Positions 15,422-46,172 of a stretch of DNA of 64,000 bases are shown in pieces (position 1 is the stretch's first letter; each line of letters begins with the position of its first letter). Source of the DNA: a virus; the IMG/VR virus record IMGVR_UViG_3300027747_003534, positions 32,001 to 96,000 of that record; one strand, written 5' to 3'. The position numbers and the translations under genes are program-made. The notes under the pieces were generated by a model. It was not told the origin of the DNA. It did not search any database and saw only the letters and a program-made list of their open reading frames with translations.

Positions 15422-18400
15422 ATGAGCAAAGGATTTAATCTTACAGCAGAAATCAACTTGCGCGGTCCTTCAAATATAAGGACTGTTGTTGCGGATATTC
15501 GCAGGCAAATTGGATCTGTATCCGCAGATATTACTCCGGTAGTTACTAGACAATCTGTCCGTAATGTTGCTAGTGTAATAAGAAGTCAGCTGTCTAATAT
15601 AATATGTGATGTTAAGATCAAAGCCAATACATCATCATTAAGAAGTATTGGATCAGATATAAGAAGACAGTTAAGTGGGGTTAGTGCTAATATTAACGTT
15701 AGGGCCAATCAGTCATCAATAAGAACAATGGCGGCTGACATCAGAAGACAATTAGGATCAATTAATGCTAATGTTAATGTTAGATTCAATACTACTGCTG
15801 TTACAACATATAGTAACAATTTAAGAGGATTAAATGCTAATCTTAATCAGATAATAACCTCAGCCACCAATGCTACAGGAGCCATCAATGCTTTAGCTGC
15901 TGCAATGAGAAGTGCATCAGCTGCTGGATCGGCTATTAATAATACTGCTATAAATGTTGGAAATGTTAGCAGGGCTGCGAATAATACTAGAAATAGCATT
16001 ACTCTAGCATCCAATGAAATGGTAGAGTTTGGTCGTCAATCCGGCTTAGCATTTAGAAGATTTTCAGCTATTACAACTGTTACAAGTGTTATATATGGAT
16101 TAACAAATGCTGTTAGTCAGGGTGTTAAATCTTTTATAGATTTTGATTTGCAAATGACTCGCATATCTCAGGTAACTGGTGATTCAAGAAATAAATTAGC
16201 TGATGTGGCAAATACTATTACAGATTTATCTACTAAACTTGGTGTTTCTTCTAATGAGCTAACAACTACCACAGTAACTCTTGCACAGGCTGGTTTAACG
16301 GCTAAAGATACTGCTACGGCGCTCAAAGCTTTGGCTCTTAGTGCATTAGCTCCATCATTTGATGATATGAATCAAACTGTAGAAGGATCTATTGCTTTAA
16401 TGAGACAGTTTGGTATAGGAGCAAATCAATTAGAAATGGCACTAGGTAGTGTTAATGCTGTGTCTGCTAAGTTTGCTGTTGAAGCTAGTGATATTATTAC
16501 TGCTATTCAGCGTACTGGTGGTGTGTTTGCTGCTGCTAGTAGAGGAGTAAGCACAGGCACAGAAGCATTAAATGAATTTATTGCTGTATTTACCAGTATC
16601 CGAGCTACAACTCGTGAAAGTGCAGAAACTATTGCTACTGGTTTAAGAACTATTTTTACTAGAATTCAAAGAGCAGGAACTATCGAAGCATTACAAGAAT
16701 TTGGAGTTACATTAACTGATTTAGAAGGTAAATTCGTAGGTCCCTATATTGCGGTTCAAAGACTTAGTGAAGGACTAAGCAGATTAGATCCACGAGATCT
16801 TAAATTCTCACAGATAGTTGAAGAATTGGGCGGCTTCCGTCAGATCGGCAAGGTGCTACCACTTATTCAACAGTTCGCAACTGCTCAAGACGCATTAAAG
16901 GTTGCTCAACAGGGCCAAGGATCATTAGCAACCGACGCGGCAAAAGGACAATTAGCTTTAGCTATTCAGATTCAGAAAGTGAGAGAAGAATTTCTTGCTC
17001 TTATTCGTAGCATTGGAGATACTAGTAGTTTTCAAAATATTGTAAAAGTTGGTTTAGATTTAGCCAGCGCTTTAATAAAGGTGGCTGATGCCACTAAGGG
17101 AGTTTTACCATTATTAACTCTGTTTGCTGCATTTAAAGGAATCACTGCGGCCACTCAATATATAGGTGGTTTTAGTCAAGGAATCAGAGGAAATGGTGGA
17201 GGAGCCAGAAGAGCTAATGAAGGTGGTCGTATATATGCTTTTGCTAGTGGTGGATTAGTACCAGGATATGGAAATGGTGATACTGTATCGGCAAAATTAA
17301 CTCCTGGTGAGTTTGTGATGAGCAAGCCAGCAGCACAAAGCATAGGAGTTGGTAATTTACATTCTTTGAATAGGAGTCGTGGAGGATCTATATTCCCCAA
17401 AAATTATTATCAGGGTGGGGTTGCAGCTTTAAAATCACTGTCTCCAGGAGAAAGTGGAAATAGAATCTCAGACTATATAGATTATTACGAGAATGAAACA
17501 AGCAAGACCAGCAAACAAAAAACAGGAAGAAAAAATAAATTAAACAGACAATCACCGAAAATGCTTAGAGGTTTTCAGCTCAAAGATAATGTTAATTCCG
17601 ATATAGAGAGAAGAGTTATTGGGGAATCAGAAATAAAAGAAGCTGTTGCAAACAATGCGAATTTTAGACGCTATATTAATAGTAGAGCAGCCAAAGATAA
17701 GAGTAGAGAGTTCTATGCTGCTCAAGGCGTAGCTTTTGAGGAGTTTTTATTTCAACATATTCTTGAGGGAAAACAATATGAAAAAGCACCCAAAAACAAC
17801 TATCCTTTAGATTTTATACCAAAGACTCCCGGATTACCTCCAGTTGAAGCTAAATTTACTTACGAGCAAGTTCCTGATGCATTTATTTTAAACAAACGAT
17901 TAAGATATAACTTATTGCGTCGTAATAACGAAAAAATATCTCCTTTAACCAGGAAGCAGAAACCCGACAATATTCAATTGGGTCCAACAATTGTATATGA
18001 AATGGGACCTGGATTAAAAAACAAAATCTTTACTCCAAACTCAAGTGAAAGCCAAAAAAGAGGAAGAGAAGAAAGAGCTCAGAAGAGTTTATTAAAAATT
18101 GATAAACTTGGTTTAGAACGTAATAATGGTGGATCTATACAAAAATTCGGTATTGGTGGAAGTACTGACGCTATATCAACATATAAAGCAACTTCTATGA
18201 AACTTAATAGAAGTCTAATGCTTGGAACTCCATTAACTAAAGAAGAACAAAAAAATGTTAAAGATTTAAAAAAACAAACCACAGATAAATTACCAAAACA
18301 ATTATATTCTGGTATTGGAGAAAATAGACTCAATCTGATTAAAAATCAAGTTGGCGATAAGCTACCAAAATCGGTTGGCAAATCATTTACATTACCTGGA

Positions 18401-21400
18401 TTTTTATCTACTAGTTTAGATAGCTCTATAGCAATGGAATTTGCTCGTCAAGGACTTTTGAGTATTTTGACCAACCCCAAGAAAAAGGGTATTAATACTA
18501 ATAAACGAGTTAGTACAGATTATGATTTAGAAAAAGAATTTATATTACCACCAAACTCTAAATTCAAAATCTTAAGCGCAAAAGAAGAGCGAAGTTCTGC
18601 TCGACCCGGAAGTTCTTTAATGAGATCAAAAGCTAGTCTTAATGTTCAACAACTAGCTTCTGGTGGATCTATTCAGCGATTCATGGCCGGAGAGATGGTC
18701 AGAAGAACAAAAAAAGAACGGTTTAAAAAAATAACAGAGTCCGATGCTGCTAAATTAACAGCTTCTCAAATTATAACAGGCCTTACTACTGGACAGACCG
18801 GCCCCGTTAGAGTAGAGGGTATGGATGTTGGAATGATGAGGACTATTCTTGGTAAACGAAATACAACACCAGATATTCAACGCAAAAAAGATGAGATTCT
18901 AAAAGCTTATACCAGAAGAATAAACGGTGAAGTAGATCAACGTCTCGGAATTACTAATCAGAAACAAGCAGCAGGATTACTATTTGGTATTGCTGGTTTG
19001 TACGGCTCTCCATTTAAGCCAACTGATATGGTTGTTGGAGATAAAGGAGAACTTAAAAACATCACAACTGTTCAGGTGATGGGTGGTGTTCCTCGTAAAA
19101 AATTAATGGATAAGGCTGGCATAGGTATTGATGATCTAGATGCTTATGGTAAAGATTTTAGAAAATCTGTTAAAAAAGGAGCTAAAAGACTATTAGTATC
19201 GGATATTCTTAGTCAACTAGGTTTAGGTAAAGCGCTTTATGCTGACTTTGACAAAACATTAGTATTTGGGGCTGATAATCTTCCTGATCTACAGTCTTTT
19301 AACAACAAGAGACAGGTAGGTAGACAATTATTATCAGAAAAAGCTAGACTTAGCACTCTTGGTCAAAAATTAAGAGATTTATTGCTAGTTAAGCCTCAGC
19401 TGTCACCATATGTAAATGTACTAACAGCGCGACCACCCTCCACAGTTGGTCTTTTACAAGCTTTCCTTAAACGACAAAATCTTAATATACCTCGTTCTCA
19501 ATTTACCGGGGTTGGTGGTAATAATTTAAACGAATCTGCAATTGCAAAATTAAAAGCTGCGGAATTACCTCCCGGATCAGTTTTTGTTGATGATAATGGA
19601 AAAAATACAAAAGAAGCAGAACTTAAATCTAAATCACTAAAGGCTAAAGGTGAAGCTGGTATTAAAGTATTTAGATATAAAAGTGCCAGAAATCCGTTAG
19701 ATCAACCGGGTGAAGATACTGCTGCTGGTCTTGCATTTCAAGAATCATTAAGAGGACTTCTTTCAGACAAAAGAGCAATGGCAGCATTTGCTGAAACAGG
19801 AGGAAAGAGCATTGACTTTCCGCTTGGATTAGGAAAACGAGCAGCATTATTTGGTCTAAAACCAAACATACCAACAGATGCCAAAAGAACATTGAATGGT
19901 CCATCAACAGCAAAAGATAATATCACTAATTATCTAAAAGTTCGAGGTTATAATAGCGGTGGAATAATTCAAAAATTTGAAACTGGTGGAGCAACAGATA
20001 GTCTTAGACAATACCAATTGCGATCTAAAGATCTTCATTCTGCTGTTATTTCAAACAAACCAGACAAAACTAAAAGTAATCAGATAAAAGATCTTGACAG
20101 TTCAATGATTGATTCTTTGCCAAAAATACTTTATAGTGGATTTAAAGAAAATCGTAGAAAAATTATTGATCAAGATATAGATCCTAATAAAGACTATAAA
20201 TCTCAGTTAATGAATAAGACTTTTTCTTTTCCGTCATTTTTGTCTACTTCTATAAACTATGATAGTGCTAAAAGATTTGCTGGATCAAATGGAGGGGTAT
20301 TACACATAAGACCAACAGGTAAGGGTGCTAATGTTTTAGAAAGAACCGGTAATAAAGGAAAGAGTGCTCTTTATGATATGGAAGCAGAATATCTATTACC
20401 AAGAAATTCTAGATTTAAAATCAATAGAGTATTAGATACTACTGGACCACTAGGATGGAGATCAGATTGGGGTGCTCCAAATTTTCTAGAAGCTGAAGTT
20501 AAAAGTTTTAAAAATGGTGGAAACATTAGAAGATTTGCTGATGCTGGATTAGTACCTGCTCCTAAATTAATTCAAAGAGGAGGATTCAAGTATAGTCTAG
20601 AAGATATTATTAAAGCCGGTTTTACTGAAGCTCAGTTCATGAAGCAAATACCTGCTCCTGGTGGCTATGGTGAACAGTGGCAAATTGGTGGTTATGGAGA
20701 AGGCTCAATACCTATGCCTCCATCCCTACAACCATATAAAGCTCCACCATCTGTTGTTCAGGATCGGGTTGATCTTGCTCGATCAAATGTTCAAAATAGA
20801 ATGGCAGATGCGGTAAGGAGAGACGGACGCACTTTGAGAGATTACGAGGTTAGCAGTGATCAAAAGGCGTTCAAGAAAATGCGAGGATATGCAATAGGAG
20901 GATCCACACAGGATACTGTACCAGCATTAGTTAGCAATGGAGAAGCTTTTGTACCACCAGAAACAGCAAAAAATATAGGATATGACAAATTAAGAGAAAT
21001 GAACCAAGCAGATCGTAATGGTATGAGGTCATTTGCTGGTGGTGGAATTAGTTTATTTAAGGGACCCGGTAGCGGAACAAGCGACAGCATAGGACCTGTA
21101 GGATTGCCTGTGGGCGGATTTGTTATAAGAGCAGCTGCTACCAAAGCTTTAGGATTAAGTAAGGGCGGAGCCGTTCAAAGATTTGCTTTTGGAGGAAGTC
21201 CTAGAGCAGTACCAAATATTAGCGGCATGAGCGATGCTAGAGCATTATCAGTAGTTGGAGTTACAGATAATGTTACTGGTCAACTAGAAAATTTAGCTAC
21301 GGTATTACAAGAATTAGGTGTTAGATCAGGTGATTCTGCTAGAATTATTCAGAGCGGCATACAAGCAACATACCAACAAGCTATACGAGCAACAGAAGCT

Positions 21401-30400: not shown

Positions 30401-33400
30401 GCTAATAAGAGAACTCAAAGATCTGTAGTAATAGACGATTCTATACTTGATTTATTTGGCCGAAAGTTTGCTCCTATAACAGAAACAAGACCAGATGCTG
30501 TTCCAGATAACGGGAAAAAATTTACAGGACGTGAAGTTAGTGACACGGCTAGAGAAAATGATAAATTCCCATTTAGAACCAGAATAACTGGAGCTAAAGG
30601 AATTAATTCACAGTATAAGTCTGCATATTCTTATTATAGAAGAATACTAGGAGAATATAATTATCATAAAAATATTGGAAAATTAGATAGATATATAAAA
30701 GGATATAAAACCACAGCTACTGTTGCTAGAACTTTAGCTAGTGGTGGCATAGTATATGCATCTACTGGGGCTTTAATTCCTTATGCTCCCAAGGGCACGG
30801 ATACTGTTCCGGCAATGTTAACTCCTGGTGAATTTGTCGTTAACGCAAGATCAACTGCTAAAAATTTACCTCTACTAAAGTCTATTAATAATGGAGGAGT
30901 TCAAGGATTAAGTAGTGGGGGAGTGGCTTATCTTAGTAGGGGAGGACAACCAAATGATGTTTCATACGGTAGGTTTGAATTATCTGATGACCAAGCACAA
31001 TTTTCTCATAGATCAATCAATCCATTAACGGGAAATAGAACTCCTGAGAATGGTGATGATCTTGATAAAAAATATAGGATTAACTCTGGTATATATGACT
31101 ATTTGACCCTAAGAACCACGATGCCAGACTGGTTAACTTCGTTAAATAATTTAAGCTTCGATGATAATAGTATGCGCTTTTTTAGCGACGCTTCTTTTTA
31201 TAAGACCTTAACTCAAATAAGAGAAGCTAATGATTTAAGGAGTCTCCAAAGTCTATCATATAATTTTGTTAAAGGTTTTAAATATAGAGATTATAATAAA
31301 GATAATCGTCTTACTGGATTTGATTTTACTAGCCATCTTTCAAAAACGGACGGAATTTTAGGATTAATAGATCCTGATGTTGGAGGAGACCTTCAGCCGA
31401 AAGATTTGGTCAAATGGACAACAACAAAAGCCAAGCTCCAGGCAAAATCATCTGCTGCAAGAGTTGTTAAAAATTTAACTCCTGATCTAGAAAATCTAAG
31501 AGATATTCTTTCTGATCAGAAGCCTATGGGGAAAAATAATAATCCAGAGTTTAAAAATAGAAATCATTATGAGTCACCAGCAGCATTACTAAACAGCACC
31601 GTGAGCGAATGGAAAAAACAGAGACAGCAACAAAAAAACAGAGTAAATCTAAGACAAGAAGAGTTAACAGAAAGTAAAGATGGTCGTCAAATCACGATGC
31701 CTCCTCATCTCAATATGAATTTTGATGAAATTAATGTTGCTGATGTTGTAAAAGATATTCTTGCTAAGAAAAAGACCCCATATACGGAAAATCTAGTATC
31801 TTGGCTCGAAAATAATGTAAAAACAGTATCTGAAAAAGTAGCTGATTTGGTACCTGTTCCAAAGGCTAGTGAGGAATGGGATGCTGCTGATGCAGAGAGG
31901 CCGCGTGTTATTTTGGACCTTATTAAGAATGGTCCAGAAGCCTTTATGACTGGATTAAAGGGAGAAACCAAAGAGGGTAAAAGCAAGTCTCTTATTTATT
32001 CTCTACTAGCTCAGTCTGCTAGAATCCAAGGTATTAATAATCTTATCAAAGCTAGATCATTATTTTCTGGATCTGAGACTTCAGTCAGAAAAGGAGAAAC
32101 TAACTTTACCGGAGATATGGCAAGAAGAGATCGTAACTTAGTATATAAAGACCAGACCAGAACTCCTGAAAATTTTGAAGAAAGAGAAAATAACGTATCA
32201 AGATCAGGACAAGTAAAAACATTAACGCCAGCAGATAATTCTGCAATACCTGGGTCTGGACCAAACGGAGAGCAAACTTCAGATGAGCGAAGAGAAACTT
32301 CCAATAGGGCCAGGATGGCTAATGGCCGTGGAAACTCTGCTATTCGTGGCATTGAACTATGGGATACTAATAGGGATGGTAAAATCTCTTTTGAAGAATG
32401 GAATCAATTTCGTCCTGAGAAAGAACCCGAACTGCAAAGATTTTTTGGGGCTTCCACATTTGACGCATTAATGGGAGCTTATTCTTCAGCATTAAAAGGC
32501 TTGGGTCTTAGGGATAAAAATGCCACAGATAATTTCAAACCTAGAACTCTAAAAGACTATTTTAAAAATATTGATAAAGACAACACCGGATATATCGAAC
32601 AACATGAATTCTCAGATATGGTTGGTAAACCACTAGAATATCTTGATATAGAAACAGATCGAGAAGCAAAAGAACTAGGAGATACACTAGGAACACAAAG
32701 AGATCCTAGAGGCGCTCAGAAATTAGCCTATGATAAAATAGATAGAACTACCATCTCATCAGTAAAAAATTTATTAAAACAAGATTTTAAGGAATTATAC
32801 CCAGTTTCTTTCTCTAAGGCTTCGCACTTCTCAGAAAGAGAAGTAATACAACCACAGATAGATGCTCTTAGAAAAATCACAGGGGTTTCTGAGCTAGATA
32901 AGATAAATAAAAGAACAATCTTAGCAAATATAGGGTCTTCCTTAAATAAGGATAATAGTGATTGGGGTCTCTCTCCCAAAGTTGAGGAAAATCTTGGTAA
33001 TGTTATGGTTAAAATTAAGCAAGATTCTTTGCTATTTCCAGGAGTGGTTAATAAGGCATATACTCAAGGTCTTGCTACTCCTCAAGATCTGCTGCATAAC
33101 CCTGATATTAATTACGAGAAGACCCTTAAAAGGTCAGGAATTCCAGAAGACATATTTAAAACCATATGGCAAGACTATAAGCCAGTTTCTAAGTTTGATA
33201 ATCCGAATAGCAAAGACTCCTTAGACAAAATATATAAATTAAATAATGAGCTTAATTCTCAGGAAATAGGCGAAGACAAAGAAAGAACTACAGCAGCAGC
33301 ATTAAGTCAAAAATCAAACGCTAAAAAAAGATCAGCTAAAAAAGAATTAACAAAAAATACTTTAATAGAACAACTTCTCGTTAAAGCGAAATACTTTGAA

Positions 33401-36400
33401 CCAGATGTTTATAACAAGTTATGGCGTGGGCAGTATAAAGACTATTACGATGTGCCTGATCCAACTCTTGCTCGACACGTTGATATGTATAACACCCTGA
33501 TACCTTCCGGCGAAACTGGTCGTTTATCAAAGCCATCCGCAGATCAAGAGAAGGAGTATAGAAATAGATTAAAAGATATTAGTAAAAATCCAATTTATGC
33601 TAATAAAGGAATGCTTATCCCTTACCAACCCAGAGGAACTGATACTGTTCCTGCAATGTTGACTCCCGGAGAGTTTGTTATCAATAGAGCGGCCACCCAA
33701 CAAAATTTACCACTGCTACATGCTATTAATAGTGGAGCTAAAACTTATAGTAGTGGTGGAATTGTATATGCTGCTAATGGAGATTTGATAGGATCATCCA
33801 ATAGCTCCTCAAATAGTGATCTATCTAAAATCTCAGCAGTAGCATCTTTAGTTCCTAAAATCTTAAGTAAAGTAAAAGATTCTGATAAGATTAAATCTAA
33901 TCTCGATACTATTAATAATAACGTTATATTAAATCATAAACAAGGCAAAATATTAAACGATAAAATAAGTTTATTAAATAATAAAATTGATATGGGATTA
34001 GGAGATATTCAAGAAAATATTCCTACTGATAATTATTTGTCAAATATTCCTAATTATTTTTCAAATAATTTATCAAGAAGTTCATCATATGGATTGAATC
34101 ATGGGGGAATAGTTTATGCTGCGAATGGGAAGTTAGTAAATTATCAACCACAAGGAACAGATACTATTCCAGCAATGTTGACCCCAGGAGAATTCGTAGT
34201 TAATGCTCGGGCTACTAGTGCAAATCTTCCATTATTACAGACCATAAATAAGAGCAAGGGAGGCATTGCTTATTTACAACAAGGAGGTCTTCCTAATAAT
34301 AGAGATTTTTTAGAAAATAATAGAGATTTACAAAGATTTACAAGTCGTATTGGATTAAAAGCAGCTAGAGATATCATAAATCATAAAGATATGTATGATA
34401 TTTTTAATAATAATATGTTTCATGAAGACTTGGACGTTGATGCAAAAATAGTTGAGAGTAAGAGATATATCGACAGTCATATAACAGATAGGTCAAAAAT
34501 AGCTGCTAGAGAGCTAGTTAAACAAAGAATAAGGCAGAGACAGCGTTATTTAGACCAAATATTTACAGCTAATCGTTTTACCCTTGATGAAATAAGTTTT
34601 GGCGGGAGAGATCGTGAGCTTAGGTATACATTATTTGGAATAGAACTAAAAGAGATTTTAACTACACAATGGCGCAATGCTCAAGGGGAAAACTATAGGT
34701 TACAAGACGTTATCGAAGGAATCAACCCATCTCGCCCACCTTCTTTTTTTAATAATGGCGGAGTAGTTTATGCTCAAGATGGATTTGATCCATCAAAACA
34801 AAGAATGCCTACTTTATTCGATTTGCCCCAAGATTTTAGAAAACCACATAAACCATATAAGCCAGATGTTAAGCCAAAACCAGGATTAGCTGGAGCATCA
34901 ATAGGAGCACCAGAAAAAGTTAGTGCTACCACACAGAGAGCTATCGATAGTAAGGTTTGGGAACAGACACCTCAAGACATTCCCTATTGGTTTGGAACAA
35001 GAAAAGAATCAGAAACTGAAAGACAACAAAGAGTAATTGAGTACGGCTTGAACGAAAATCTACCTGAATGGTATAAAAATGCTGGAATGGCTTGGCAAAT
35101 GGTCGAAAATATTGCGCAAGGTTGGGCGGGTACCGGAGGAGCAGGTCATCAGCAGCCTAGATTAATGCAACGAGTAAAAGGATCACGAACACCACTAACT
35201 GGACAAAGACCGAACATTCCTGTTCCTGGTTATGGAGCTTCTAACCCTAATACTCTTAATGATTTAACAACATCAAATGTTACTAGACCAATGGTTAGGA
35301 CTGGAGATACTTTAGATAATGCTACTACTGATGCTGGTTTAAGACGCAGAGTCTCGTCGCCAAAAGATGCTCTTCAGAATGCGTCTACAAACAGTATGTC
35401 TAGACCTAAGCCAATATCAAATCAGGATAGTTTTGGTAACGAATCCACTAATGCTGGATCAAACCCAAAGCTACAATTAGCTCCTTTATCATCTAGTTTG
35501 GGAGGAACCACATCAAACTCCAATGTGTCACAGCCTGCTGTACCATCTAGTTCCTCATCCAAAGGTATTCTTGGTAAAATTTTAGAGTATATCAAAAAAC
35601 CTTTTGTAAAGCAACAAACTGATGAAGATCCACGGATGCCAGTATTTATGACAAAGAAACCAGATTCTGTAACTGAAGGAAATATACAGAAATTACTTTC
35701 AGATAGGCAGGTAGGATATACTGGCAGTTCGTTATTAGCAGGTAGAAATGCAAAACCCGGAATGTTAAAAGAAGTAGACAAATATCTGCGAGATGCTGGT
35801 ATAGATCCATCTTCTATGAAATTTGTTGGATCTGGTAGAGAATCGATGGTTTTTGATGCTGGTAATGGAAAAGTATTTAAACTTGGATATACACAAAATC
35901 GTGATGTTCAAAATATTTTAAAGTCTCCTGATTTAGAAGCTTTGTCTTTACCTTCCGATGTTCCAGGCGTAGCAGGATATACAGGAAGACAAAATATAGG
36001 ACCATATACTGTAGGCTTTCAACAAAGAACTCAAACGCTTGATCCAGAAGCTCAAAAACAATTTCAAACCGGCAATGTCGGTGCTGAAATGCAAAAATAT
36101 TTACGAGAAAAGGGGTACGAATGGAAAGACGCTCATCAGGGTAATGTTGGATACGCTACAGATCCGCGGTTTGGTATACCAACACCTATGGGATCATTAC
36201 AGGTTATTGATGGAGATGTTAGACCAATACAGGCGAAACAAAAAGGAGGCATGATATATGCTTCACAAGGAACACTAGTCAACTATCAACCTCGTGGTAC
36301 CGATACAGTGCCAGCGATGCTGACTCCGGGAGAATTTGTTGTTAATGCTCAAGCAACAAGACAAAATCTACCACTATTACAAAGCATCAATAAAAGCAAA

Positions 36401-38806
36401 GGAGGGGTAATTTATTCTGCTAATGGAGGTTTAGTAGGATTACTAAGACGAAAAAATGTTAATAGGATGGAAAACAAAGCACAAAGTACTAATGAAAGCA
36501 ATTCTTGGATAGGTGTTAATGGTGATGGGAAGCCTATGGATAAATTTGGCATGCCTATAGATAATTTAATGGATATTTATCCTTCTGATATTATGTTGGT
36601 TAATGCTCAGTCTAGGGAAAAAGCTTTGGAAGATATCCAAGCAAATACTAACTTTGATAAGGTAAAAGATACAGTACAAAAAGCCTCAGTCTTATGGCGA
36701 AAACAAAAATTAAACTTAGATGAAAATAATAATCGCAAAAGTGATAGTGATATTGTCTTAGACGAGCTAATATATCAAATAGCTTTTGAACCTAAAAGAT
36801 TTGATAAAAATAGCTATAGTTCAGATGCCGATGATACCGTTCTTGCGAAAGCAAAAAAGATAATGGAGGAAATCAATGGAACTGGAGGAGCAGTGCCTCC
36901 CGGAGCTGTTCCAAATGCTAATTTGCAGCTAACCAACACACAACTCTTACAAACTCAGAGAGTTAGTGATAGAATTTGGGAAAGAACAAGTTATTTAAAA
37001 CAAATTGTAAATAATACACAAAATGCGATAGATGTCTTAGGCCATAATCAAGCTAATAACGAAAAAAGAAATATTTTTGATGGAACAACTGTAGACGGAA
37101 CATCACAGTTTGACCCAGCAGCCATTGGAATATCTAATACGACAAATAAGCAAGGGACACAAGTCTTACAATCTCAAAATGATTGGGCAAAAAAAGAATT
37201 AGATTATATAAAAGCTGTTCGTGAGGAGATTATGACTCTCTCAACTCCAGAACAAAGAGCTAATTTAGCTCAAATGCCTAGACCGCCAGAAGTATTATAT
37301 GATGAGACAACACCTATCCCAATGAGATTTAATAGAGGTGGCGTTGTTTATGCTCAAGATGGATTTGATGCATCAAAGCTGCCTATTAATAAAAATAAAG
37401 GTGGTATAATTTATGCTTCACAAGGAACACTAGTAAACTATCAGCCTCGCGGCACCGATACTGTTCCTGCTATGCTAACACCAGGAGAATTTGTTGTTAA
37501 TGCTAAGGCTACGTCTAAAAATTTATCATTACTACAATCTATAAATAATGGAGTCCAGGGATATTCTAATGGAGGAGTGATTGATCCTATCTATAGGCCA
37601 AGGGGTGGATATACCCCACCAAGACCACCAAAACAAACATTAGAACAAAGACAACAAGCATACCAAGATCGTAGAGCAGCTGAAAAAACTGCTCGTGAAG
37701 ATAGAGCAACAGCTAGAAAAAATAAAACTACTTCATATGATCAAATGTTAAACGCTAGGGAAGAGGCTTACAGAGCCAACGTAGACGCTAGGGCAGATAA
37801 TAATAGATCTCCATTAGTAAAAATCTTCGAGGAACTAGAAAAACAAGTAAATGCTAATCCAGATAAATTTGAACTAGTTATGCCTGGCTCTGTTAGATCA
37901 GCTCTTGATGAGGATAAAGATGCGAAAGCAAAATCAGAATTCTATGAACAGCATTTTATGTCTTTGTCTCCAGAAGATGTATATAAGGCCGCTAAGGAGA
38001 TGTACTTAAAAGATCAAAGACAATTTAAATATTTAGAAGGTATTTATAATAGATCTAAACAAGCATTATTTCAATTTAGTAGATATCCTGCAATAGGAGG
38101 TAGAATAGTTGGCACAAGTGGTAAAACTGCCTTAGCAATACTTTCCAAGCAAGTTGAAGCAGCACATGCTCAGGGCTTAGTATTAGATAATGCTTGGAAA
38201 ATTTTAGGTCAAAAACATCCAGAATTTTTAGCCCAAAATAGCAATCGTCAAAATGCTGCTGGCCATGCCTCTGGAGGAATAATTTATGCTAATAATGGAA
38301 TGCTAATTCCTTATCAACCAAGGGGTAGTGATACTGTCCCCGCCATGTTAACGCCCGGAGAGTTTGTAGTCAATAAACAGGCAGCTCAAAATAATTTAGA
38401 TTTATTACAACAAATTAATAGTAAGAAATATAATCAAGGAGGCCATGTAGTCTATAAAGAAGCTGGAGGGCCAATACAACTTAAAAAACCAATATATAGA
38501 GCTAATGGGGGCATGACCGATGAAACTTCTGGAGGAGGCGGTGGTGTATCTAATAATAAAGATATGGGCCTAAATTTTGATGGATTAAGTCAGTTTACAG
38601 CAACATTTGGCAAGTTTATTCAACAACTAAATAGCCTAAAATTACCAGAAGTTATTAATATTCAAGGAAATCATAAAGTTGATGTTGTCATTAACGGAGC
38701 CGGAGCATTACAAGGTATGCAAGAAGGTATTAGAAACATGATTGTGGGAGAAGTTAATAAAGCCATGAGTAGCATAAGCAAACAAACAGATGGAGCAATA
38801 GCATGA
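15422..38806 (+). CDS. Giant tape-measure protein / cargo polyprotein (7794 aa)
   Basis: TP901-type TMP core near the N-terminus (FIDFDLQMTRISQVTG...LAQAGL...ETIATGLRTIFTRI); synteny tube-chaperones-TMP-baseplate; 11 DTVPAMLTPGEFV-type modules; embedded enzyme motifs. Confidence 0.9.
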   Translation: MSKGFNLTAEINLRGPSNIRTVVADIRRQIGSVSADITPVVTRQSVRNVASVIRSQLSNIICDVKIKANTSSLRSIGSDIRRQLSGVSANINVRANQSSIRTMAADIRRQLGSINANVNVRFNTTAVTTYSNNLRGLNANLNQIITSATNATGAINALAAAMRSASAAGSAINNTAINVGNVSRAANNTRNSITLASNEMVEFGRQSGLAFRRFSAITTVTSVIYGLTNAVSQGVKSFIDFDLQMTRISQVTGDSRNKLADVANTITDLSTKLGVSSNELTTTTVTLAQAGLTAKDTATALKALALSALAPSFDDMNQTVEGSIALMRQFGIGANQLEMALGSVNAVSAKFAVEASDIITAIQRTGGVFAAASRGVSTGTEALNEFIAVFTSIRATTRESAETIATGLRTIFTRIQRAGTIEALQEFGVTLTDLEGKFVGPYIAVQRLSEGLSRLDPRDLKFSQIVEELGGFRQIGKVLPLIQQFATAQDALKVAQQGQGSLATDAAKGQLALAIQIQKVREEFLALIRSIGDTSSFQNIVKVGLDLASALIKVADATKGVLPLLTLFAAFKGITAATQYIGGFSQGIRGNGGGARRANEGGRIYAFASGGLVPGYGNGDTVSAKLTPGEFVMSKPAAQSIGVGNLHSLNRSRGGSIFPKNYYQGGVAALKSLSPGESGNRISDYIDYYENETSKTSKQKTGRKNKLNRQSPKMLRGFQLKDNVNSDIERRVIGESEIKEAVANNANFRRYINSRAAKDKSREFYAAQGVAFEEFLFQHILEGKQYEKAPKNNYPLDFIPKTPGLPPVEAKFTYEQVPDAFILNKRLRYNLLRRNNEKISPLTRKQKPDNIQLGPTIVYEMGPGLKNKIFTPNSSESQKRGREERAQKSLLKIDKLGLERNNGGSIQKFGIGGSTDAISTYKATSMKLNRSLMLGTPLTKEEQKNVKDLKKQTTDKLPKQLYSGIGENRLNLIKNQVGDKLPKSVGKSFTLPGFLSTSLDSSIAMEFARQGLLSILTNPKKKGINTNKRVSTDYDLEKEFILPPNSKFKILSAKEERSSARPGSSLMRSKASLNVQQLASGGSIQRFMAGEMVRRTKKERFKKITESDAAKLTASQIITGLTTGQTGPVRVEGMDVGMMRTILGKRNTTPDIQRKKDEILKAYTRRINGEVDQRLGITNQKQAAGLLFGIAGLYGSPFKPTDMVVGDKGELKNITTVQVMGGVPRKKLMDKAGIGIDDLDAYGKDFRKSVKKGAKRLLVSDILSQLGLGKALYADFDKTLVFGADNLPDLQSFNNKRQVGRQLLSEKARLSTLGQKLRDLLLVKPQLSPYVNVLTARPPSTVGLLQAFLKRQNLNIPRSQFTGVGGNNLNESAIAKLKAAELPPGSVFVDDNGKNTKEAELKSKSLKAKGEAGIKVFRYKSARNPLDQPGEDTAAGLAFQESLRGLLSDKRAMAAFAETGGKSIDFPLGLGKRAALFGLKPNIPTDAKRTLNGPSTAKDNITNYLKVRGYNSGGIIQKFETGGATDSLRQYQLRSKDLHSAVISNKPDKTKSNQIKDLDSSMIDSLPKILYSGFKENRRKIIDQDIDPNKDYKSQLMNKTFSFPSFLSTSINYDSAKRFAGSNGGVLHIRPTGKGANVLERTGNKGKSALYDMEAEYLLPRNSRFKINRVLDTTGPLGWRSDWGAPNFLEAEVKSFKNGGNIRRFADAGLVPAPKLIQRGGFKYSLEDIIKAGFTEAQFMKQIPAPGGYGEQWQIGGYGEGSIPMPPSLQPYKAPPSVVQDRVDLARSNVQNRMADAVRRDGRTLRDYEVSSDQKAFKKMRGYAIGGSTQDTVPALVSNGEAFVPPETAKNIGYDKLREMNQADRNGMRSFAGGGISLFKGPGSGTSDSIGPVGLPVGGFVIRAAATKALGLSKGGAVQRFAFGGSPRAVPNISGMSDARALSVVGVTDNVTGQLENLATVLQELGVRSGDSARIIQSGIQATYQQAIRATEADIRRARLAGASAEQISQAENQLADIRRQAQQDIQTRRTLGGLSGNQLQSIESNAQEERDRIRTNTRNRLAARGMSQEDINTRLQENAGAIDRQAYSRASSRAGVNLRANGLTGDDAQRFVRQSMGDPRILRQMDDQLRQQLRSSTAYTTASRTQQRQMSQSVEEEIRTRKDIVNKLARQRGQQAPGGDQRGNFGGMLGLSFGLQGIGSLLAQQINASASSSNASTAGAIQGGVTGLATGGMLVGGLQDMLGSRLSPAVSKLLGGFGLLATLAASVGQAFIEARNAAIEFEKNFQQKKLETAISDSQQLFEKLNTNIKNVDIQRSLASKLAEAGEAAKAGIEANNKLAKAFWVNLFDAFGSADQGAASQRSEILDKKGIMAYFRSTDLFGGGDKGRSKEYQSLIPEKARENSKSFAETSKLTTDLIGAKIQSGSSVEDIFKDPAWKKQAEVIARANAAVEQEILSIKNNANISDVEKEARINNIIAINAEQTIRQQASVIERQQQLKSLDNTINVYTRSLERMFQNMEQSIGRASFSLEQMSKDIDLASDSLQGQAKVGNIALTAINALQNPRAYSDQTVSNSRNVAAESFGIRSPEMVSLLGVGEKIESTVMSTINKSVNKNPGITEEALGSIVGRDVKEALANLSLPPDLVEKLSGEVGNVLKDFKKSGDEKLDYTQLSEKLGQLNKVVDSSRRAQEVAIKALEHYQNALNVYTQNINKTIDLQISANQRLRKATDIVADSELSLAKTLGKNISLENARTMVNSKVSAKTGGATNPNDIFDSINKLENTRVVQQAEQRSAGERGLSGQADFIKFTKNLSDTNIGLRENIDALKYLADNTDIAASAMEKIQEAQQKSSGRASFIEKLVTSTPEELNGLSSAFQRLQNNANGQINTINRSTGAQRAYYEALQNGASMMEAMKAAQAAFVNERKETLGALNDILPFLGNNQQAGNIKANVLESMLQESGMGVSPVFQQILNTLRNPELDPATQAAIAEYREGNNLQARANSLLAQLDSNLARDIANQSAKALANALSDVKINFEGSELKDLVNLVQQINGKLPLGAAPAAGKASGGVIYAAAGRAIDFKSQGTDTVPAMLTPGEFVVNRAATQSHLPLLNAINSNKYSSGGAVRYYSSGGYVSQNFKEEYKKNSDDLVQSKEKYIDPRSAAFREVKSVYAGPDKFVRGAQPKTIMAPVATASSGRASLDSIKSEDGINNLYLGEAPAILVEKNAHNQDVFNYGVINRPRAHLLDPLGSVVDKPFDTKNITKNKFIEYKNSFNQKLINSDLDSSTIVSSMPAVNDIKDIPESLISDQFYSPNVISNLPVGMIVTRNKTLGALSWNKESTEHAKVLKIYRLASDYADVSVVSNEDQGYYKIKSDLKMSDSSAQDRIKILTGDNSWITEKDNIKNIIKTQELNLKDLKQTQTFTSVDPDPTNPVFNNLFKAEDPNLSNLRQKLEILYSGAEGISLTGNELNFFNPSALSEDKENNITLLHVLNSKYKPILDKSLNSKQQADKIKTTFPKLMVGGAGLNNLPDADYKWARGYEFGIYDVADMGKMKTFPWVANEDPSVISQDIQAAIDNQAEQLKTKYGISTKPVSDFGSYKLKLPNPIGDVDLPYHMQYTEYTGPQIATDPSKADPNGFNLGANLNKALLITPNNKNPLSPYSQFKKYAQSTAYVDKILTGDEIFDKSHIELDKIPDFTTLAKGNIDRNQRDQLKQNLKGVQYSIDLDSLIDHTNHPILKNIPLFEDSPPNKQSYVFNIGEYLSTVADKVFTDRDNAAIKSVGEIDDKGQLADDTIKDNKLPDAVKNLARLSLGVFGRKRVPGLPGNWLYNSIRGIIQKPFKNSGVAQQAAGYTSGIFNNFGGYLSKLAPMTRNPNIYQQLKELFTLGSGAAMAFTGLASGDTRMIGQFQKLNLNAEDLFRSLGGASLFGRISSTALSGDYKAILGQQLEGAKIKTVGANGTLSLVSADKAIPEKYNDLVNIAFNPYNEFPSKDTRKDIIEKLTTDMINATDQVGMSYFDPNTQRFLYGNMTSLYNWYGGNGAWEGQDYFFDKNVDPDNAKRTQQVIDSFSGQDGQDAYTKGNIAHTTLGFASRYGSLPTDKWFVQRREAGLNAEARAVTDPNASKDPLRFATGGVVYAQEGQHINFQPRGTDTVPAMLTPGEFVINKAATQSNLPLLHAINNGGAKAYSNGGPVYLARGGLTVKEHFKPLDTNIFDSLDIDKNSILEDNEMPKNSILRYMADYRKGADNKLTKKELEEYNTDYDSHIDNYLSLDAQKKYNNINPQKQKLNGSFQLNNGDRISQIQFIQTYEAANKIGKQKSKWGARNTLEENFYSGDPNYPFSQATYDLEAHNNKLRLGVGPFNSKAFGYGVAQQIIPALLSLAGGGVGFALTAPFTPAAQIGGTIGGAIVGDQIGQVINEMIYNGFPSSWKKDINKKIEKYPESYEIGQWTGFAADIAMGGFADDFITKSASGLVKKKLTRQAIDEAIKSGSSLNKLIQVGNDTIPIEKTVDDLAESTGKEAASNSKKVNKSKSKKSEKAENKAKIDSLLKNMKIIGDEYNSKIGEAYNKGILRKYDSLAAGDIASAIQKTGDVRNQAAKFHFDDLLKSSPDYVDPSLLTKLTDNSPIYIAAQSQAKETFSRLGIDVSDDFGKLDANKMFDEYFNKEYDILSKNPLNEAAARQKQSILDEIAQKYDIDPSDFKRLKDKLDDIAVRPRRPGFKTIYGLTKTAIMIARMIKDRKIEQKKAQPYDMPEAQTVPAVADKAEAAASPNKDEPKTAETTPPKPQVVKPKDVGNLPKYWDELSYKEYLDTLIKSGKNPEIPDKKLFTTSAIYTKGKRTTALDSRDTTGIVGGNRVSLPKDPKEKAKLDAQINNIGQKLYTSSEIAYDSYSRLVTGKNKNIPLGDIIKGDLIDNYRQSIESMHELMSITNLDKFGTINFKLDKPLPGQSSNKKLGDIIDTLKAVRKGYKNDIVPSLVNEDAEPKEGETPEDANKRTQRSVVIDDSILDLFGRKFAPITETRPDAVPDNGKKFTGREVSDTARENDKFPFRTRITGAKGINSQYKSAYSYYRRILGEYNYHKNIGKLDRYIKGYKTTATVARTLASGGIVYASTGALIPYAPKGTDTVPAMLTPGEFVVNARSTAKNLPLLKSINNGGVQGLSSGGVAYLSRGGQPNDVSYGRFELSDDQAQFSHRSINPLTGNRTPENGDDLDKKYRINSGIYDYLTLRTTMPDWLTSLNNLSFDDNSMRFFSDASFYKTLTQIREANDLRSLQSLSYNFVKGFKYRDYNKDNRLTGFDFTSHLSKTDGILGLIDPDVGGDLQPKDLVKWTTTKAKLQAKSSAARVVKNLTPDLENLRDILSDQKPMGKNNNPEFKNRNHYESPAALLNSTVSEWKKQRQQQKNRVNLRQEELTESKDGRQITMPPHLNMNFDEINVADVVKDILAKKKTPYTENLVSWLENNVKTVSEKVADLVPVPKASEEWDAADAERPRVILDLIKNGPEAFMTGLKGETKEGKSKSLIYSLLAQSARIQGINNLIKARSLFSGSETSVRKGETNFTGDMARRDRNLVYKDQTRTPENFEERENNVSRSGQVKTLTPADNSAIPGSGPNGEQTSDERRETSNRARMANGRGNSAIRGIELWDTNRDGKISFEEWNQFRPEKEPELQRFFGASTFDALMGAYSSALKGLGLRDKNATDNFKPRTLKDYFKNIDKDNTGYIEQHEFSDMVGKPLEYLDIETDREAKELGDTLGTQRDPRGAQKLAYDKIDRTTISSVKNLLKQDFKELYPVSFSKASHFSEREVIQPQIDALRKITGVSELDKINKRTILANIGSSLNKDNSDWGLSPKVEENLGNVMVKIKQDSLLFPGVVNKAYTQGLATPQDLLHNPDINYEKTLKRSGIPEDIFKTIWQDYKPVSKFDNPNSKDSLDKIYKLNNELNSQEIGEDKERTTAAALSQKSNAKKRSAKKELTKNTLIEQLLVKAKYFEPDVYNKLWRGQYKDYYDVPDPTLARHVDMYNTLIPSGETGRLSKPSADQEKEYRNRLKDISKNPIYANKGMLIPYQPRGTDTVPAMLTPGEFVINRAATQQNLPLLHAINSGAKTYSSGGIVYAANGDLIGSSNSSSNSDLSKISAVASLVPKILSKVKDSDKIKSNLDTINNNVILNHKQGKILNDKISLLNNKIDMGLGDIQENIPTDNYLSNIPNYFSNNLSRSSSYGLNHGGIVYAANGKLVNYQPQGTDTIPAMLTPGEFVVNARATSANLPLLQTINKSKGGIAYLQQGGLPNNRDFLENNRDLQRFTSRIGLKAARDIINHKDMYDIFNNNMFHEDLDVDAKIVESKRYIDSHITDRSKIAARELVKQRIRQRQRYLDQIFTANRFTLDEISFGGRDRELRYTLFGIELKEILTTQWRNAQGENYRLQDVIEGINPSRPPSFFNNGGVVYAQDGFDPSKQRMPTLFDLPQDFRKPHKPYKPDVKPKPGLAGASIGAPEKVSATTQRAIDSKVWEQTPQDIPYWFGTRKESETERQQRVIEYGLNENLPEWYKNAGMAWQMVENIAQGWAGTGGAGHQQPRLMQRVKGSRTPLTGQRPNIPVPGYGASNPNTLNDLTTSNVTRPMVRTGDTLDNATTDAGLRRRVSSPKDALQNASTNSMSRPKPISNQDSFGNESTNAGSNPKLQLAPLSSSLGGTTSNSNVSQPAVPSSSSSKGILGKILEYIKKPFVKQQTDEDPRMPVFMTKKPDSVTEGNIQKLLSDRQVGYTGSSLLAGRNAKPGMLKEVDKYLRDAGIDPSSMKFVGSGRESMVFDAGNGKVFKLGYTQNRDVQNILKSPDLEALSLPSDVPGVAGYTGRQNIGPYTVGFQQRTQTLDPEAQKQFQTGNVGAEMQKYLREKGYEWKDAHQGNVGYATDPRFGIPTPMGSLQVIDGDVRPIQAKQKGGMIYASQGTLVNYQPRGTDTVPAMLTPGEFVVNAQATRQNLPLLQSINKSKGGVIYSANGGLVGLLRRKNVNRMENKAQSTNESNSWIGVNGDGKPMDKFGMPIDNLMDIYPSDIMLVNAQSREKALEDIQANTNFDKVKDTVQKASVLWRKQKLNLDENNNRKSDSDIVLDELIYQIAFEPKRFDKNSYSSDADDTVLAKAKKIMEEINGTGGAVPPGAVPNANLQLTNTQLLQTQRVSDRIWERTSYLKQIVNNTQNAIDVLGHNQANNEKRNIFDGTTVDGTSQFDPAAIGISNTTNKQGTQVLQSQNDWAKKELDYIKAVREEIMTLSTPEQRANLAQMPRPPEVLYDETTPIPMRFNRGGVVYAQDGFDASKLPINKNKGGIIYASQGTLVNYQPRGTDTVPAMLTPGEFVVNAKATSKNLSLLQSINNGVQGYSNGGVIDPIYRPRGGYTPPRPPKQTLEQRQQAYQDRRAAEKTAREDRATARKNKTTSYDQMLNAREEAYRANVDARADNNRSPLVKIFEELEKQVNANPDKFELVMPGSVRSALDEDKDAKAKSEFYEQHFMSLSPEDVYKAAKEMYLKDQRQFKYLEGIYNRSKQALFQFSRYPAIGGRIVGTSGKTALAILSKQVEAAHAQGLVLDNAWKILGQKHPEFLAQNSNRQNAAGHASGGIIYANNGMLIPYQPRGSDTVPAMLTPGEFVVNKQAAQNNLDLLQQINSKKYNQGGHVVYKEAGGPIQLKKPIYRANGGMTDETSGGGGGVSNNKDMGLNFDGLSQFTATFGKFIQQLNSLKLPEVINIQGNHKVDVVINGAGALQGMQEGIRNMIVGEVNKAMSSISKQTDGAIA
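15473..15790 (+). repeat. About four 27-aa repeats at the TMP N-terminus
   Basis: IRTVVADIRRQIGSV, VRNVASVIRSQLSNI, LRSIGSDIRRQLSGV, IRTMAADIRRQLGSI. Confidence 0.8.
17720..18010 (+). other. PD-(D/E)xK nuclease-like domain within TMP
   Basis: GVAFEE (17726), YPLDF (17801), VEAK (17843). Confidence 0.6.
18161..18650 (+). other. ADP-ribosyltransferase-like domain 1 within TMP (VIP2/Alt-like)
   Basis: LYSG (18302), FLSTS (18401), EKEFILPPNSKFKI (18530). Confidence 0.8.
19235..19680 (+). other. HAD-superfamily phosphatase domain within TMP
   Basis: Motif I DFDKT (19244), motif II LTAR (19421), a Lys, motif IV FVDD..N (19583). Confidence 0.75.
19715..19945 (+). other. Second PD-(D/E)xK nuclease-like domain within TMP
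   Basis: GLAFQE (19727), IDF (19811), TDAK (19874). Confidence 0.5.
19991..20505 (+). other. ADP-ribosyltransferase-like domain 2 within TMP
   Basis: LYSG (20129), FLSTS (20237), EAEYLLPRNSRFKI (20381). Confidence 0.8.
32363..32615 (+). other. EF-hand pair within TMP
   Basis: Canonical 12-residue loops DTNRDGKISFEE (32363) and DKDNTGYIEQHE (32573). Confidence 0.7.
35750..36225 (+). other. Minimal protein-kinase-like domain within TMP
   Basis: Gly loop GSGRES (35828), VFK (Lys at 35879), catalytic loop DAHQGN (36128), IDG (36206). Confidence 0.7.
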
Positions 38807-43191: not shown

Positions 43192-43194
43192 TAA
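43183..43194 (+). promoter_or_regulatory. Candidate late-promoter motif
   Basis: AGTGTATAATAA, 35 bp upstream of the ATG at 43218. Confidence 0.35.
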
Positions 43195-43217
43195 GTATTA
43201 GTTAGTAAGGACAAATA

Positions 43218-44657
43218 ATGGGATCATTATCAATAGGACCTAGCTTAAAATTAACACCAATTCCATTGGTCACAATAAGCAATGAAATACAAAGGGACGG
43301 AGCAGGAAAACCCATAGGGTGCACAACCAATATTACATTGAAGGGAGAAATATATCCCTCCGGAATACAATTTGGAGGAAATGATAATAATAATCCAACA
43401 CAGCAGTATACAGATGCATTATTAAACACCGCTCTACAAGCAGCAACTGGCATAAGACAAAAATTAAATAATTTATTTAGAGATTCCACGCCTATAGATC
43501 TAACACTGCCTAATTCATATGGCTTATTCACTAATTGTTATATTAAAAAATATTCTGTAGACGAAAATGAAAATAGATGGGTTAATACTATCCCATATAG
43601 CATAGAACTAATCTGCGAAAGAAATGAGCCCTCTGGAAATTTATATTTAGTTAATAGTACCAAAGACTCTTGGACTATAGAATCACTAGAAGAATATTGG
43701 AAAACAAATGCCGAAGGAGCTGGAACTAAGGGTCCTCTGTATAGAATTACTCATTCTGTAGGAGCTGTCGGAAAGTATTATCCAGGAACAACTCCGTTGC
43801 AAAATGCTAAGCAGTGGGTTAATAGTGGAAACTTAAATTTTGATGGTAATATAAATATAAATAATAATTTAGTGTTATTTAATCATATTAGAAAAGTAAA
43901 TATTAATAAATTTGAGGGTTCTTATGGTTTTGATGACACTTGGTTAGCTGTTGATAATTTAGAAGATATTTCAAAACATTCTATAGAAAATTTTGAAGTA
44001 GAAATTAGTATTGATGAATCTAAAAATATTGTAGCAAATGTTAAGGGGTCGGTTCAGGGAATAGAATTGTTTAGTAAAAATAATACTGGAATTCCAGGTT
44101 ATGATAAACCTGCTACTGATTCAACAAATTTTATTCCTACTACTGGGAGATTTGCTAATGCTTTAAAAACATATATTGATGTTAGAAATCAAATAAATAG
44201 TAGAGCTAGCGCTTTAGCTGGAGCAACATTAAATCCTAAACCACTGTCTATAGTAGAAGGATTTGATTCGGCTGCTGGATTGATAACATATAGCTTTTCT
44301 TATGATAGTAGACCAAAAACTATAGTGCCAGAAGCAATCAGCGAAAATATAACCGTAGATACTAACTATGGACAAAAAAAATTATATGCTTCTATTTTTG
44401 TTCTAGGACGAAAATTAGGTCCAATATTACAAGAAATTAACTCAAATGGAACATATAGTTCTACTACTGTCAATTATGAATGCGTTTTACCATCTTCAGG
44501 AATAGCAAATCTTAAATTTCCAATAACAATTTATAATAGTATACCTATTAAAGATTTTGCTCCTGACAATTATTTATATGTACAAAATAGCGGATTTTCT
44601 TGGAATATGAACGAAAATAGATTATCTATGACAATAGAGTATGTTCACAATGAGTAA
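43218..44657 (+). CDS. Putative distal-tail/baseplate hub protein (paralog A)
   Basis: Downstream of the TMP; beta-rich; colinear motifs shared with the next gene; RBS AAGGA. Confidence 0.55.
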   Translation: MGSLSIGPSLKLTPIPLVTISNEIQRDGAGKPIGCTTNITLKGEIYPSGIQFGGNDNNNPTQQYTDALLNTALQAATGIRQKLNNLFRDSTPIDLTLPNSYGLFTNCYIKKYSVDENENRWVNTIPYSIELICERNEPSGNLYLVNSTKDSWTIESLEEYWKTNAEGAGTKGPLYRITHSVGAVGKYYPGTTPLQNAKQWVNSGNLNFDGNININNNLVLFNHIRKVNINKFEGSYGFDDTWLAVDNLEDISKHSIENFEVEISIDESKNIVANVKGSVQGIELFSKNNTGIPGYDKPATDSTNFIPTTGRFANALKTYIDVRNQINSRASALAGATLNPKPLSIVEGFDSAAGLITYSFSYDSRPKTIVPEAISENITVDTNYGQKKLYASIFVLGRKLGPILQEINSNGTYSSTTVNYECVLPSSGIANLKFPITIYNSIPIKDFAPDNYLYVQNSGFSWNMNENRLSMTIEYVHNE

Positions 44658-46170: not shown

Positions 46171-46172
46171 TA

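Follow-up and report, generated by a model that had tools for sequence, protein, structure and literature searches.

A conserved junction module recurs eleven times among exchangeable cassettes of a predicted giant phage tape measure protein

Introduction

Phage tape measure proteins (TMPs) are usually viewed as passive rulers, sometimes with one wall-degrading motif. The published precedents in which a TMP carries an enzyme are single-enzyme fusions, those of TM4, T5, P1 Sit and P23-45 gp96; for TM4, Piuri and Hatfull reportedly described in 2006 a wall hydrolase motif embedded in gp17. Here we describe P0001, a predicted giant TMP encoded by one open reading frame (ORF) at positions 15422..38806 (+) of a 64,000-bp window, the whole stretch of DNA that was analysed, which corresponds to bases 32001-96000 of the 161,520-bp IMG/VR record IMGVR_UViG_3300027747_003534, an uncultured phage whose record is rated complete. 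The protein is punctuated by eleven copies of a module of about 65 amino acids (aa), and it is these copies, the segments that they enclose and their resemblance to a region of the lambda TMP that concern us.

The closest described systems differ in what they carry and in how they are processed. Work published in 2024 showed a TMP with one enzyme on board: gp96 of Thermus phage P23-45 is a 5,002-aa TMP of an 800-nm tail with a virion RNA polymerase at its N-terminus, and demonstrates that delivery of a functional enzyme is within the capacity of a TMP (PMC10770324). Lambda gpH is cut in a glycine-rich region near its C-terminus into gpH* (approximately aa 1-710) and gpHC, with neither the site nor the catalyst of the cut known (PMC12617516; Hendrix and Casjens 1974 and Tsui and Hendrix 1983, cited there), and residues ∼690-817 of gpH have never been resolved, being disordered in every map (PMC12617516). 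The T5 TMP, pb2, is cut after R1127 to yield pb2* and pb2C (PMC10038345).

Results

Eleven copies of one module in a giant tape measure protein

P0001 matches the Pfam family PF10145 PhageMin_Tail at aa 265-469 (E 1.6e-21), the NCBIfam model TIGR01760 tape_meas_TP901 (E 6.8e-25), and 12 PHROG families, all except one of which are annotated as tape measure; on these matches we identify the product as a TP901/lambda-type TMP. No match was obtained when the ORF was compared by megablast with 50,697 phage records, or when both halves of the protein were searched against PDB sequences. The extraordinary length of the ORF raises the question as to whether it is an artefact of assembly or gene calling, either a chimeric contig or several genes read through, and we consider the chance of this to be negligible: a run of 23.4 kb has no stop codon at all, an independent homologue of 7,872 aa is 95% identical over the first 928 aa and 78% identical over the ∼3,100 aa that follow, no fewer than 136 other proteins have lengths of at least 2,500 aa and mostly share the N-terminal core, and the module copies within P0001 differ from one another at synonymous sites.

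The preliminary description of this DNA had listed eleven copies of the module, and all eleven are borne out, in a single frame of the one ORF. A regular-expression search places PAMLTPGEFV at nt 24683, 27881, 30809, 33650, 34169, 36311, 37466 and 38339, in each case 15 nt past the position listed earlier, which marks the preceding GTDTV; these eight good copies are designated M1 to M8. The other three (D1 to D3, at aa 595-662, 1806-1873 and 1874-1935) are divergent. A profile built from the eleven copies and scored against the whole 161.5-kb record finds exactly those eleven places and none besides, with E-values that span 7e-36 to 2.4e-31 among M1 to M8 and 8e-24 to 2.8e-15 among D1 to D3, a recurrence that is far beyond chance.

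The eight good copies had been called near-identical, which is correct for a 17-aa core (GTDTVPAMLTPGEFV[VI]N) that is invariant among them, but not for the remainder; over a 53-aa ungapped block the copies share 57-83% protein identity and 56-75% DNA identity. Where residues are identical the same codon is used in only 31-57% of cases, such that synonymous sites are saturated, and the longest exact DNA repeats within the ORF are just 24, 23 and 21 bp. Because of this codon divergence and the shortness of the repeats we regard the copies as old duplications whose peptide selection has preserved. Neither slippage in the recent past nor misassembly can be their source, given the synonymous divergence.

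The module is composed of an N-terminal GG-h-h-Y-A box, a core, a short helix and a C-terminal x-x-G-G box. The core has the hairpin-like pattern [ST]-D-[ST]-V-P-A-x-L-[ST]-x-G-E-F-V and the helix the pattern A-T-x-x-N-L-x-L-L-x-x-I-N. Across 933 distinct module instances, a set skewed to good matches, the 13 residues DTVPAMLTPGEFV are conserved at 85-100%, and the only invariant polar residues of the module are D, T, E and N. The third divergent copy, D3, has lost the Glu of GEF and reads GGFVI. No family model in Pfam (at E <= 10) or NCBIfam matches the module. Parts of it occur elsewhere in P0001: shorter mini-motifs of the form GG-x-[IV]-x-x-[FY]-x-x-G(G) bracket both of its ADP-ribosyltransferase (ART) domains, and two orphan half-modules with the sequence GGVVYAQDGFD are present inside later cassettes.

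Modules as boundaries of exchangeable cassettes

To compare the architecture of P0001 with that of its relatives, 136 related proteins of at least 2,500 aa were cut at their modules to give 813 segments, which an all-against-all comparison assembled into 69 end-to-end families and 388 singletons. The N-terminal core is the first segment in 118 of the 136 giant homologues and the long backbone segment has counterparts in 103; the later segments of P0001 recur in only 1-28. Position is not fixed either, and the 876-aa segment at aa 5173-6048 aligns end to end, with 77.6% identity, to a segment of the relative P0005 that stands at another ordinal position.

Collinearity between P0001 and the relatives P0002, P0004 and P0005 breaks at aa 4199 (the end of M2), 5102 (the start of M3) and 7327 (the start of M7). 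P0004 and P0005 lack the 905-aa cassette that separates M2 from M3 and have one module standing there. Up to and including GEFVIN, this junction module and the flank upstream of it correspond to M2, near-identically in P0004 and less closely in P0005, and from NLPLLKS onwards, including the downstream flank, the match is to M3 and is almost exact. We interpret the chimeric M2/M3 module as the footprint of an unequal recombination event in which the crossover occurred within the conserved core. Because the collinearity of the relatives breaks exactly at modules, and because of the chimeric module, we regard the modules as real cassette boundaries and as recombination joints where cassettes enter, drop out or change place. 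The earlier term of cassette separator can be retained in this evolutionary sense, with homology starting and stopping at modules and cassettes corresponding end to end.

Distribution of the module

The module profile was scored against 1.84 billion representative proteins and matches 18,501 of them at E <= 1e-3 and 859 at E <= 1e-30. Detailed figures come from the best 150 of the 18,501; these are mostly giant proteins with 3-13 copies and lengths of up to 7,872 aa, in which the first copy occurs at aa ∼515-625 and the last ends ∼105-215 aa before the C-terminus. In keeping with the earlier proposal that amplification of the module lets many cargos be added, copy number and protein length rise together among these 150 (r = 0.73). 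The plan of the giant TMPs, a large lineage known from metagenomes, begins with the N-terminal core, a module, a variable enzyme segment, one or more modules, a conserved backbone of ∼1,100 aa and a further module, and continues through variable cassettes, each closed by a module, to a C-terminal end of ∼100-200 aa. A simpler form of ∼1,900 aa consists of the core, a module, 200-350 aa, a module, ∼1,000 aa, a module and a final ∼100 aa.

Among cultured phages 51 records have a module match, and wherever there is an annotation the match falls in the TMP gene. The carriers include phages of Nodularia, Gordonia, Streptomyces, Burkholderia and Brevundimonas as well as Mycobacterium phage TM4, and the 3,404-aa TMP of Nodularia phage vB_NpeS-2AV2 (2AV2) has two copies, arranged in tandem at aa ∼986-1107. 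The core motif is also present in genome assemblies labelled Cyanobacteria, Enterococcus, Paraburkholderia, Neisseria, Planctomycetes, Chloroflexi and Actinobacteria. In contig NZ_JADOEP010000002.1 of Enterococcus sp. BWB1-3 there are three module matches ∼6.6-7 kb apart, between 70.6 and 85.0 kb, a spacing suggestive of a giant protein with several modules in a prophage of a Gram-positive host too. Short module-bearing proteins were considered as naturally split genes and found to be mostly truncated gene calls, one of which begins at the internal Met of GGMIYA. A protein-atlas look-up gave unnamed clusters only; the nearest named cluster (score 0.82) has PF09718 on 18% of its members. The module is, then, a widespread TMP junction module without a curated family, and a literature search, which reached few subscription journals, found no earlier description of the module or of giant TMPs punctuated by it.

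A counterpart at the lambda gpH maturation cut

The likeness to the C-terminal region of lambda gpH that had been proposed is confirmed. A profile of the lambda-like first modules matches gpH at aa 709-792 with 30 bits and an E-value of 3.4e-6, computed for Z = 177,635 sequences (PDB-sized), and a profile of all copies scores 13-15 bits on the same region (∼729-789). The lambda copy ends 64 aa before the end of gpH; the family PF09718 (Tape_meas_lam_C) covers gpH 627-701 and not the module region. By these alignments the lambda module is located at or right after the gpH maturation cut, and it is by position alone that module and cleavage are linked.

Of the two acidic residues, the Asp of GTD and the Glu of GEF, both are present in 956 of 1,119 module instances; Asp alone is missing from 77, Glu alone from 75, and 11 lack both. 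Tandem pairs number 83 across 262 proteins; in 52 of them the first copy lacks Asp and the second lacks Glu, and the reverse is seen in 8, although these counts are not independent events as the tandem is inherited. Most D2-type copies in the relatives are without Asp and D3 is without Glu, such that the pair as a unit retains one Asp and one Glu. This pattern would fit a site formed between two modules.

For one module (M6), AlphaFold2 (AF2) with a 56-row alignment gives a pLDDT of 62.6, and only the A-T-x-x-N-L-P-L-L helix is reasonably confident. For the tandem D2-D3, with 27 rows, the pLDDT is 51.6 and the pTM 0.45, and each module is modelled as a helix preceded by a beta-hairpin (TVPAxLT / EFVV); a wide fold search with this tandem model returned no solved chain at Z >= 2. 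A three-copy complex prediction scored 0.01 with no control runs and weighs neither for nor against oligomerisation. Because AF2 gives no confident autonomous fold, the module is probably an extended joint that is shaped on a partner or on another module.

These data also bear on the suggestion that the module echoes the start of a Hint domain. The pattern likeness (FAxGGxV … GEFV) is a vague one, and a self-splicing or self-cleaving domain of the Hint or intein type is very improbable: neither the Pfam comparison described above nor the fold search gave a match, the models are not globular, and the module has no conserved N-terminal Cys, Ser or Thr nucleophile, no His or TxxH, and no terminal HN. 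We therefore set this part of the preliminary description aside.

A possible role in cutting the measured chain

How might such a joint function in a tail? We tentatively favour a reading, which we rate as a serious possibility although somewhat short of probable, in which the intact chain measures the tail and is then cut at its joints, as are the TMPs of lambda and T5, with the pieces being expelled ahead of the DNA. The whole chain would serve as a continuous ruler during tail building; once the tube is finished it would be cut at or just upstream of the N-terminal GG box of each module, leaving in the tail lumen a row of separate proteins, among them the ARTs, an EF-hand protein and others. 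These would leave the tail ahead of the DNA, and the ARTs, which use NAD, need the cytoplasm. Entry of P0001 into the host with the DNA is inferred from the ejection of TMPs in lambda, T5 and P23-45, and the tail probably delivers ready-made proteins in this way, judging by analogy. Because a protease can hardly reach the lumen, a module, either the one that is cut or one next to it, would be a more likely agent of the cut than an external enzyme, and the conservation of the core fits a chemical or mechanistic constraint better than a co-evolving contact with fast-diverging tail proteins.

A more specific version, that the module is an assembly-triggered self-cutting element whose active site would combine the Asp of one module with the Glu of another, either on sister chains or in the two halves of a tandem, is in our judgement unlikely as it stands. 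If true, it would name the catalyst of the gpH to gpH* cleavage, and would explain how a single ruler chain could become a magazine of separate injected proteins inside a closed tube.

A number of observations weigh against cutting at the modules. No cleavage has been recorded at any module in any phage, and the cut in lambda gpH is placed only to within about +/-20 residues. The lambda copy is without the D-[ST] pair, D3-type copies are without Glu and most D2-type copies in the relatives are without Asp; because one or other of these residues is absent from some copies, there is no single residue on which catalysis could draw in every copy. Pfam and PHROGs revealed no protease domain in the ORF, much of which is unassignable, and Prok-JAB, NlpC/P60 and S78, the only families tried, were not found in the genome. 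Profile searches find no module in T5 pb2, such that the T5 parallel rests on a short motif identified by eye, or in HK97 gp16, SPP1 gp18 and P23-45 gp96; because these last three do without it, the module is not needed for TMP function in general. A continuous chain may moreover be required for ejection, and the authors of the P23-45 study picture the enzyme as staying fused to the TMP (PMC10770324).

This last point is shared with the main alternative explanation, in which the module is never cut and is instead a joint with a structural role or a docking peptide, flexible and hinge-like and taking on a fold only when it meets a partner, with the cargo remaining tethered and acting at the mouth of the TMP channel. 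The partner could be the tail assembly chaperone, the tube lumen, or the modules of sister chains, which would keep three or six chains in register. A hairpin and a helix that are not predicted to fold stably by themselves are typical of peptides that become ordered on binding, the model for P23-45 leaves the enzyme fused to the TMP pore, the retention of one Asp and one Glu per tandem pair suggests that two modules meet, and modules occur at regular places along the backbone. Chaperones and tube proteins, however, diverge fast, and yet the 13-residue core has stayed conserved whether the phage host is Gram-positive, Gram-negative or cyanobacterial; in lambda, moreover, the part of gpH that holds the module is in the region disordered in every map. 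On balance we find an uncut joint possible but somewhat doubtful.

The same conservation across host phyla would also fit recognition of something universal, and the module could be a handle for translocation, priming the cassette after or before it for unfolded passage through the tail and membrane channel, or for refolding aided by a conserved host factor; it would then be a repeated export signal with no cut site. Each cassette does have its own module, and the HK97 TMP is said, from work by Cumby et al. in 2015, to depend for its function on a periplasmic chaperone and an inner-membrane protein. Against this, no partner is known, HK97 itself has no module, and the first and last modules flank parts that are not cargo, the N-terminal core and the C-terminal end. 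We consider a handle of this type distinctly unlikely, and retain cutting of the measured chain at its joints as our working explanation.

Other features of P0001 and its genome

The features of the ORF are collected in Table 1. Recognised cargo in P0001 is limited to the two ART domains (PF03496; phrog_3895, ADP-ribosyltransferase exoenzyme toxin, also matches the protein) and the EF-hands, and the remaining ∼5,000 aa of its cassettes have no match in Pfam, PHROG or PDB-sequence searches. The cassettes of other family members are similarly without recognisable families, and one of these proteins has an ART domain at 1015-1164, between modules at 804-868 and 1198-1261. The stretch ALYADFDKTLV (window 19232-19264), between the two ART domains of P0001, is DxDxT-like and resembles the first motif of HAD phosphatases, with no Pfam match. 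The backbone segment likewise has no Pfam or PHROG match, and from a reading of its sequence looks like a long helical ruler.

Table 1. Features of the P0001 reading frame, in window coordinates
Feature	Coordinates	Strand	Basis or remark
Giant tape measure protein, P0001	15422..38806	+	single ORF, 7,794 aa, no stop in 23.4 kb
N-terminal TMP core, aa 1-594	15422..17203	+	ends in short hydrophobic stretch, aa ∼561-571
Module D1, lambda-like subtype (…ASGG…GDTVSAKLTPGEFVM…IGVGNL…)	17204..17407	+	profile E 8e-24
ART domain 1	18116..18682	+	PF03496 in two stretches; phrog_3895; flanked by GGSIQKF / GGSIQRF mini-motifs
ART domain 2	19949..20536	+	PF03496, best stretch aa 1589-1671; flanked by GGIIQKF / GGNIRRF
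Tandem divergent modules D2 + D3	20837..21214	+	profile; tandem unit in 35 viral loci
Conserved ∼1,130-aa backbone segment	21212..24598	+	glycine-rich hydrophobic stretches, aa ∼2187-2273
Module M1	24599..24802	+	regular expression and profile
Cassette, 998 aa, after M1	24803..27796	+	common to 28 relatives; no family match
Module M2	27797..28000	+	profile; collinearity with P0002, P0004 and P0005 stops here
Cassette, 905 aa, between M2 and M3	28010..30724	+	glycine-rich hydrophobic stretch, aa ∼4375-4415
Module M3	30725..30928	+	profile
Cassette, 876 aa, after M3	30938..33565	+	EF-hand calcium-binding motifs, nt 32363-32611
Module M4, KN in place of N-terminal GG	33566..33769	+	profile
Module M5	34085..34288	+	profile
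Cassette, 649 aa, after M5	34280..36226	+	contains orphan half-module GGVVYAQDGFD, nt 34766
Module M6, copy used for AF2 model	36227..36430	+	profile
Cassette, 320 aa, after M6	36422..37381	+	closes with second orphan half-module GGVVYAQDGFD, nt 37346
Module M7	37382..37585	+	profile; collinearity with P0002 and P0005 resumes here
Cassette, 221 aa, after M7	37592..38254	+	common to 6 relatives, ordinal position varies
Module M8, last copy	38255..38458	+	ends 115 aa short of C-terminus
C-terminal 115 aa	38459..38803	+	last segment in 42 relatives

The window has a G+C content of ∼32%. ORFs upstream of P0001 include tail-fibre and baseplate-like matches; the two immediately 5' of it have no informative family. 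Right after the TMP gene are five consecutive large ORFs (window 38803-57999; 1,462, 479, 509, 1,672 and 2,278 aa) that have no Pfam or PHROG match and, judged by their position, are presumably tail-tip, baseplate or fibre proteins of undescribed kind. Just past the tail gene block, a 153-aa ORF (window 59112-59573) has sub-threshold matches to DUF6171 (25.6 bits; cut-off 27) and phrog_13558. No sheath gene was found in the genome, and a long non-contractile tail is therefore likely.

Discussion

The longest tail described to our knowledge is that of P74-26, at nearly 1 µm. Length-per-residue ratios taken from P23-45 (5,002 aa for 800 nm; PMC10770324) and 2AV2 (3,404 aa for 795 nm) give an estimate of about 1.2-1.8 µm for the tail of a 7,794-aa ruler, if the whole chain measures length, in which case the tail of this phage would be longer than any described. 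In the lineage to which P0001 belongs, at least 136 representative proteins of 2,500-7,900 aa, one conserved joint strings many fast-changing cassettes onto the ruler. The same joint adjoins the lambda gpH maturation cut, whose site and catalyst have been unknown for 50 years, and the repeated, strongly constrained copies define a peptide with which the gpH cut could be approached by mutation tests.

Comparison with known systems

Lambda gpH is similar to module D1 of P0001 in its [FY]AxGG boxes, GEFV core and IGVGNL helix, and its module is positioned between a glycine-rich hydrophobic stretch and the C-terminus that binds the tail tip. It differs in having one copy, no cargo and no D-[ST] pair. 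The C-terminal 115 aa of P0001 occupy the same position as the tip-plugging C-termini of the lambda, T5 and Douge TMPs (PMC12617516, PMC10038345, PMC13033339).

In T5 the cut parts the ruler from a C-terminal piece that has an enzyme motif and remains in the tail (PMC10038345). The cut site, FVPR\AEGGMMYPG (with the backslash marking the cut), is two residues before a GG-h-h-Y box, a likeness seen by eye only, and T5 differs from P0001 in having one cut and one small cargo. We also note by eye that HK97 gp16 (FAKGAGVFAEAGPEAIMPL) and T5 pb2 aa 1128-1160 (AEGGMMYPG…GEHGTEVVTPM) share another box, GE.G.E..hP, which in T5 is directly after the cleavage site and could represent a second class of junction element in TMPs.

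P23-45 gp96 resembles P0001 as a giant TMP that carries an enzyme, which in gp96 acts on the host cytoplasmic side (PMC10770324). Unlike P0001 it has a single N-terminal enzyme and no repeated separator, three profiles find no module in it, and no cassette exchange has been described. In the mycobacteriophages, Douge gp16 (PDB 8zdo), of which only residues 1658-1699 are modelled (PMC13033339), has two copies, at 964-1027 and 1412-1458, and is the only solved-structure sequence matched by the module profile. TM4 gp17 has one clear copy, at aa 702-774, immediately N-terminal to the HxxxD…HxH lytic region. Both differ from P0001 in their copy number of one or two and in a cargo that is a cell-wall enzyme used during entry.

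As a delivery magazine, the P0001 tail would be comparable to polyvalent or MARTX-type effector arrays. MARTX toxins carry effector cassettes in one polypeptide, which vary among strains and are released by cleavage between the cassettes; they are secreted bacterial proteins whose linkers are short and which have a cysteine protease domain of their own. There is no relation between MARTX toxins and P0001 in either sequence or delivery route. Polyvalent proteins are, similarly to P0001, giant and fast-shuffling; they are multi-domain, with ART domains included, and it has been suggested that they accompany the DNA into the host and in some cases process themselves (Iyer et al. 2017, PMC5512222). 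In contrast to P0001 they are delivered from the head or by conjugation, are processed by recognisable peptidase domains and have no repeated 65-aa joint, and the paper that describes them never mentions tape measure proteins (PMC5512222). What distinguishes P0001 from the single-enzyme TMP fusions is a repeated module that fences many cassettes within one TMP.

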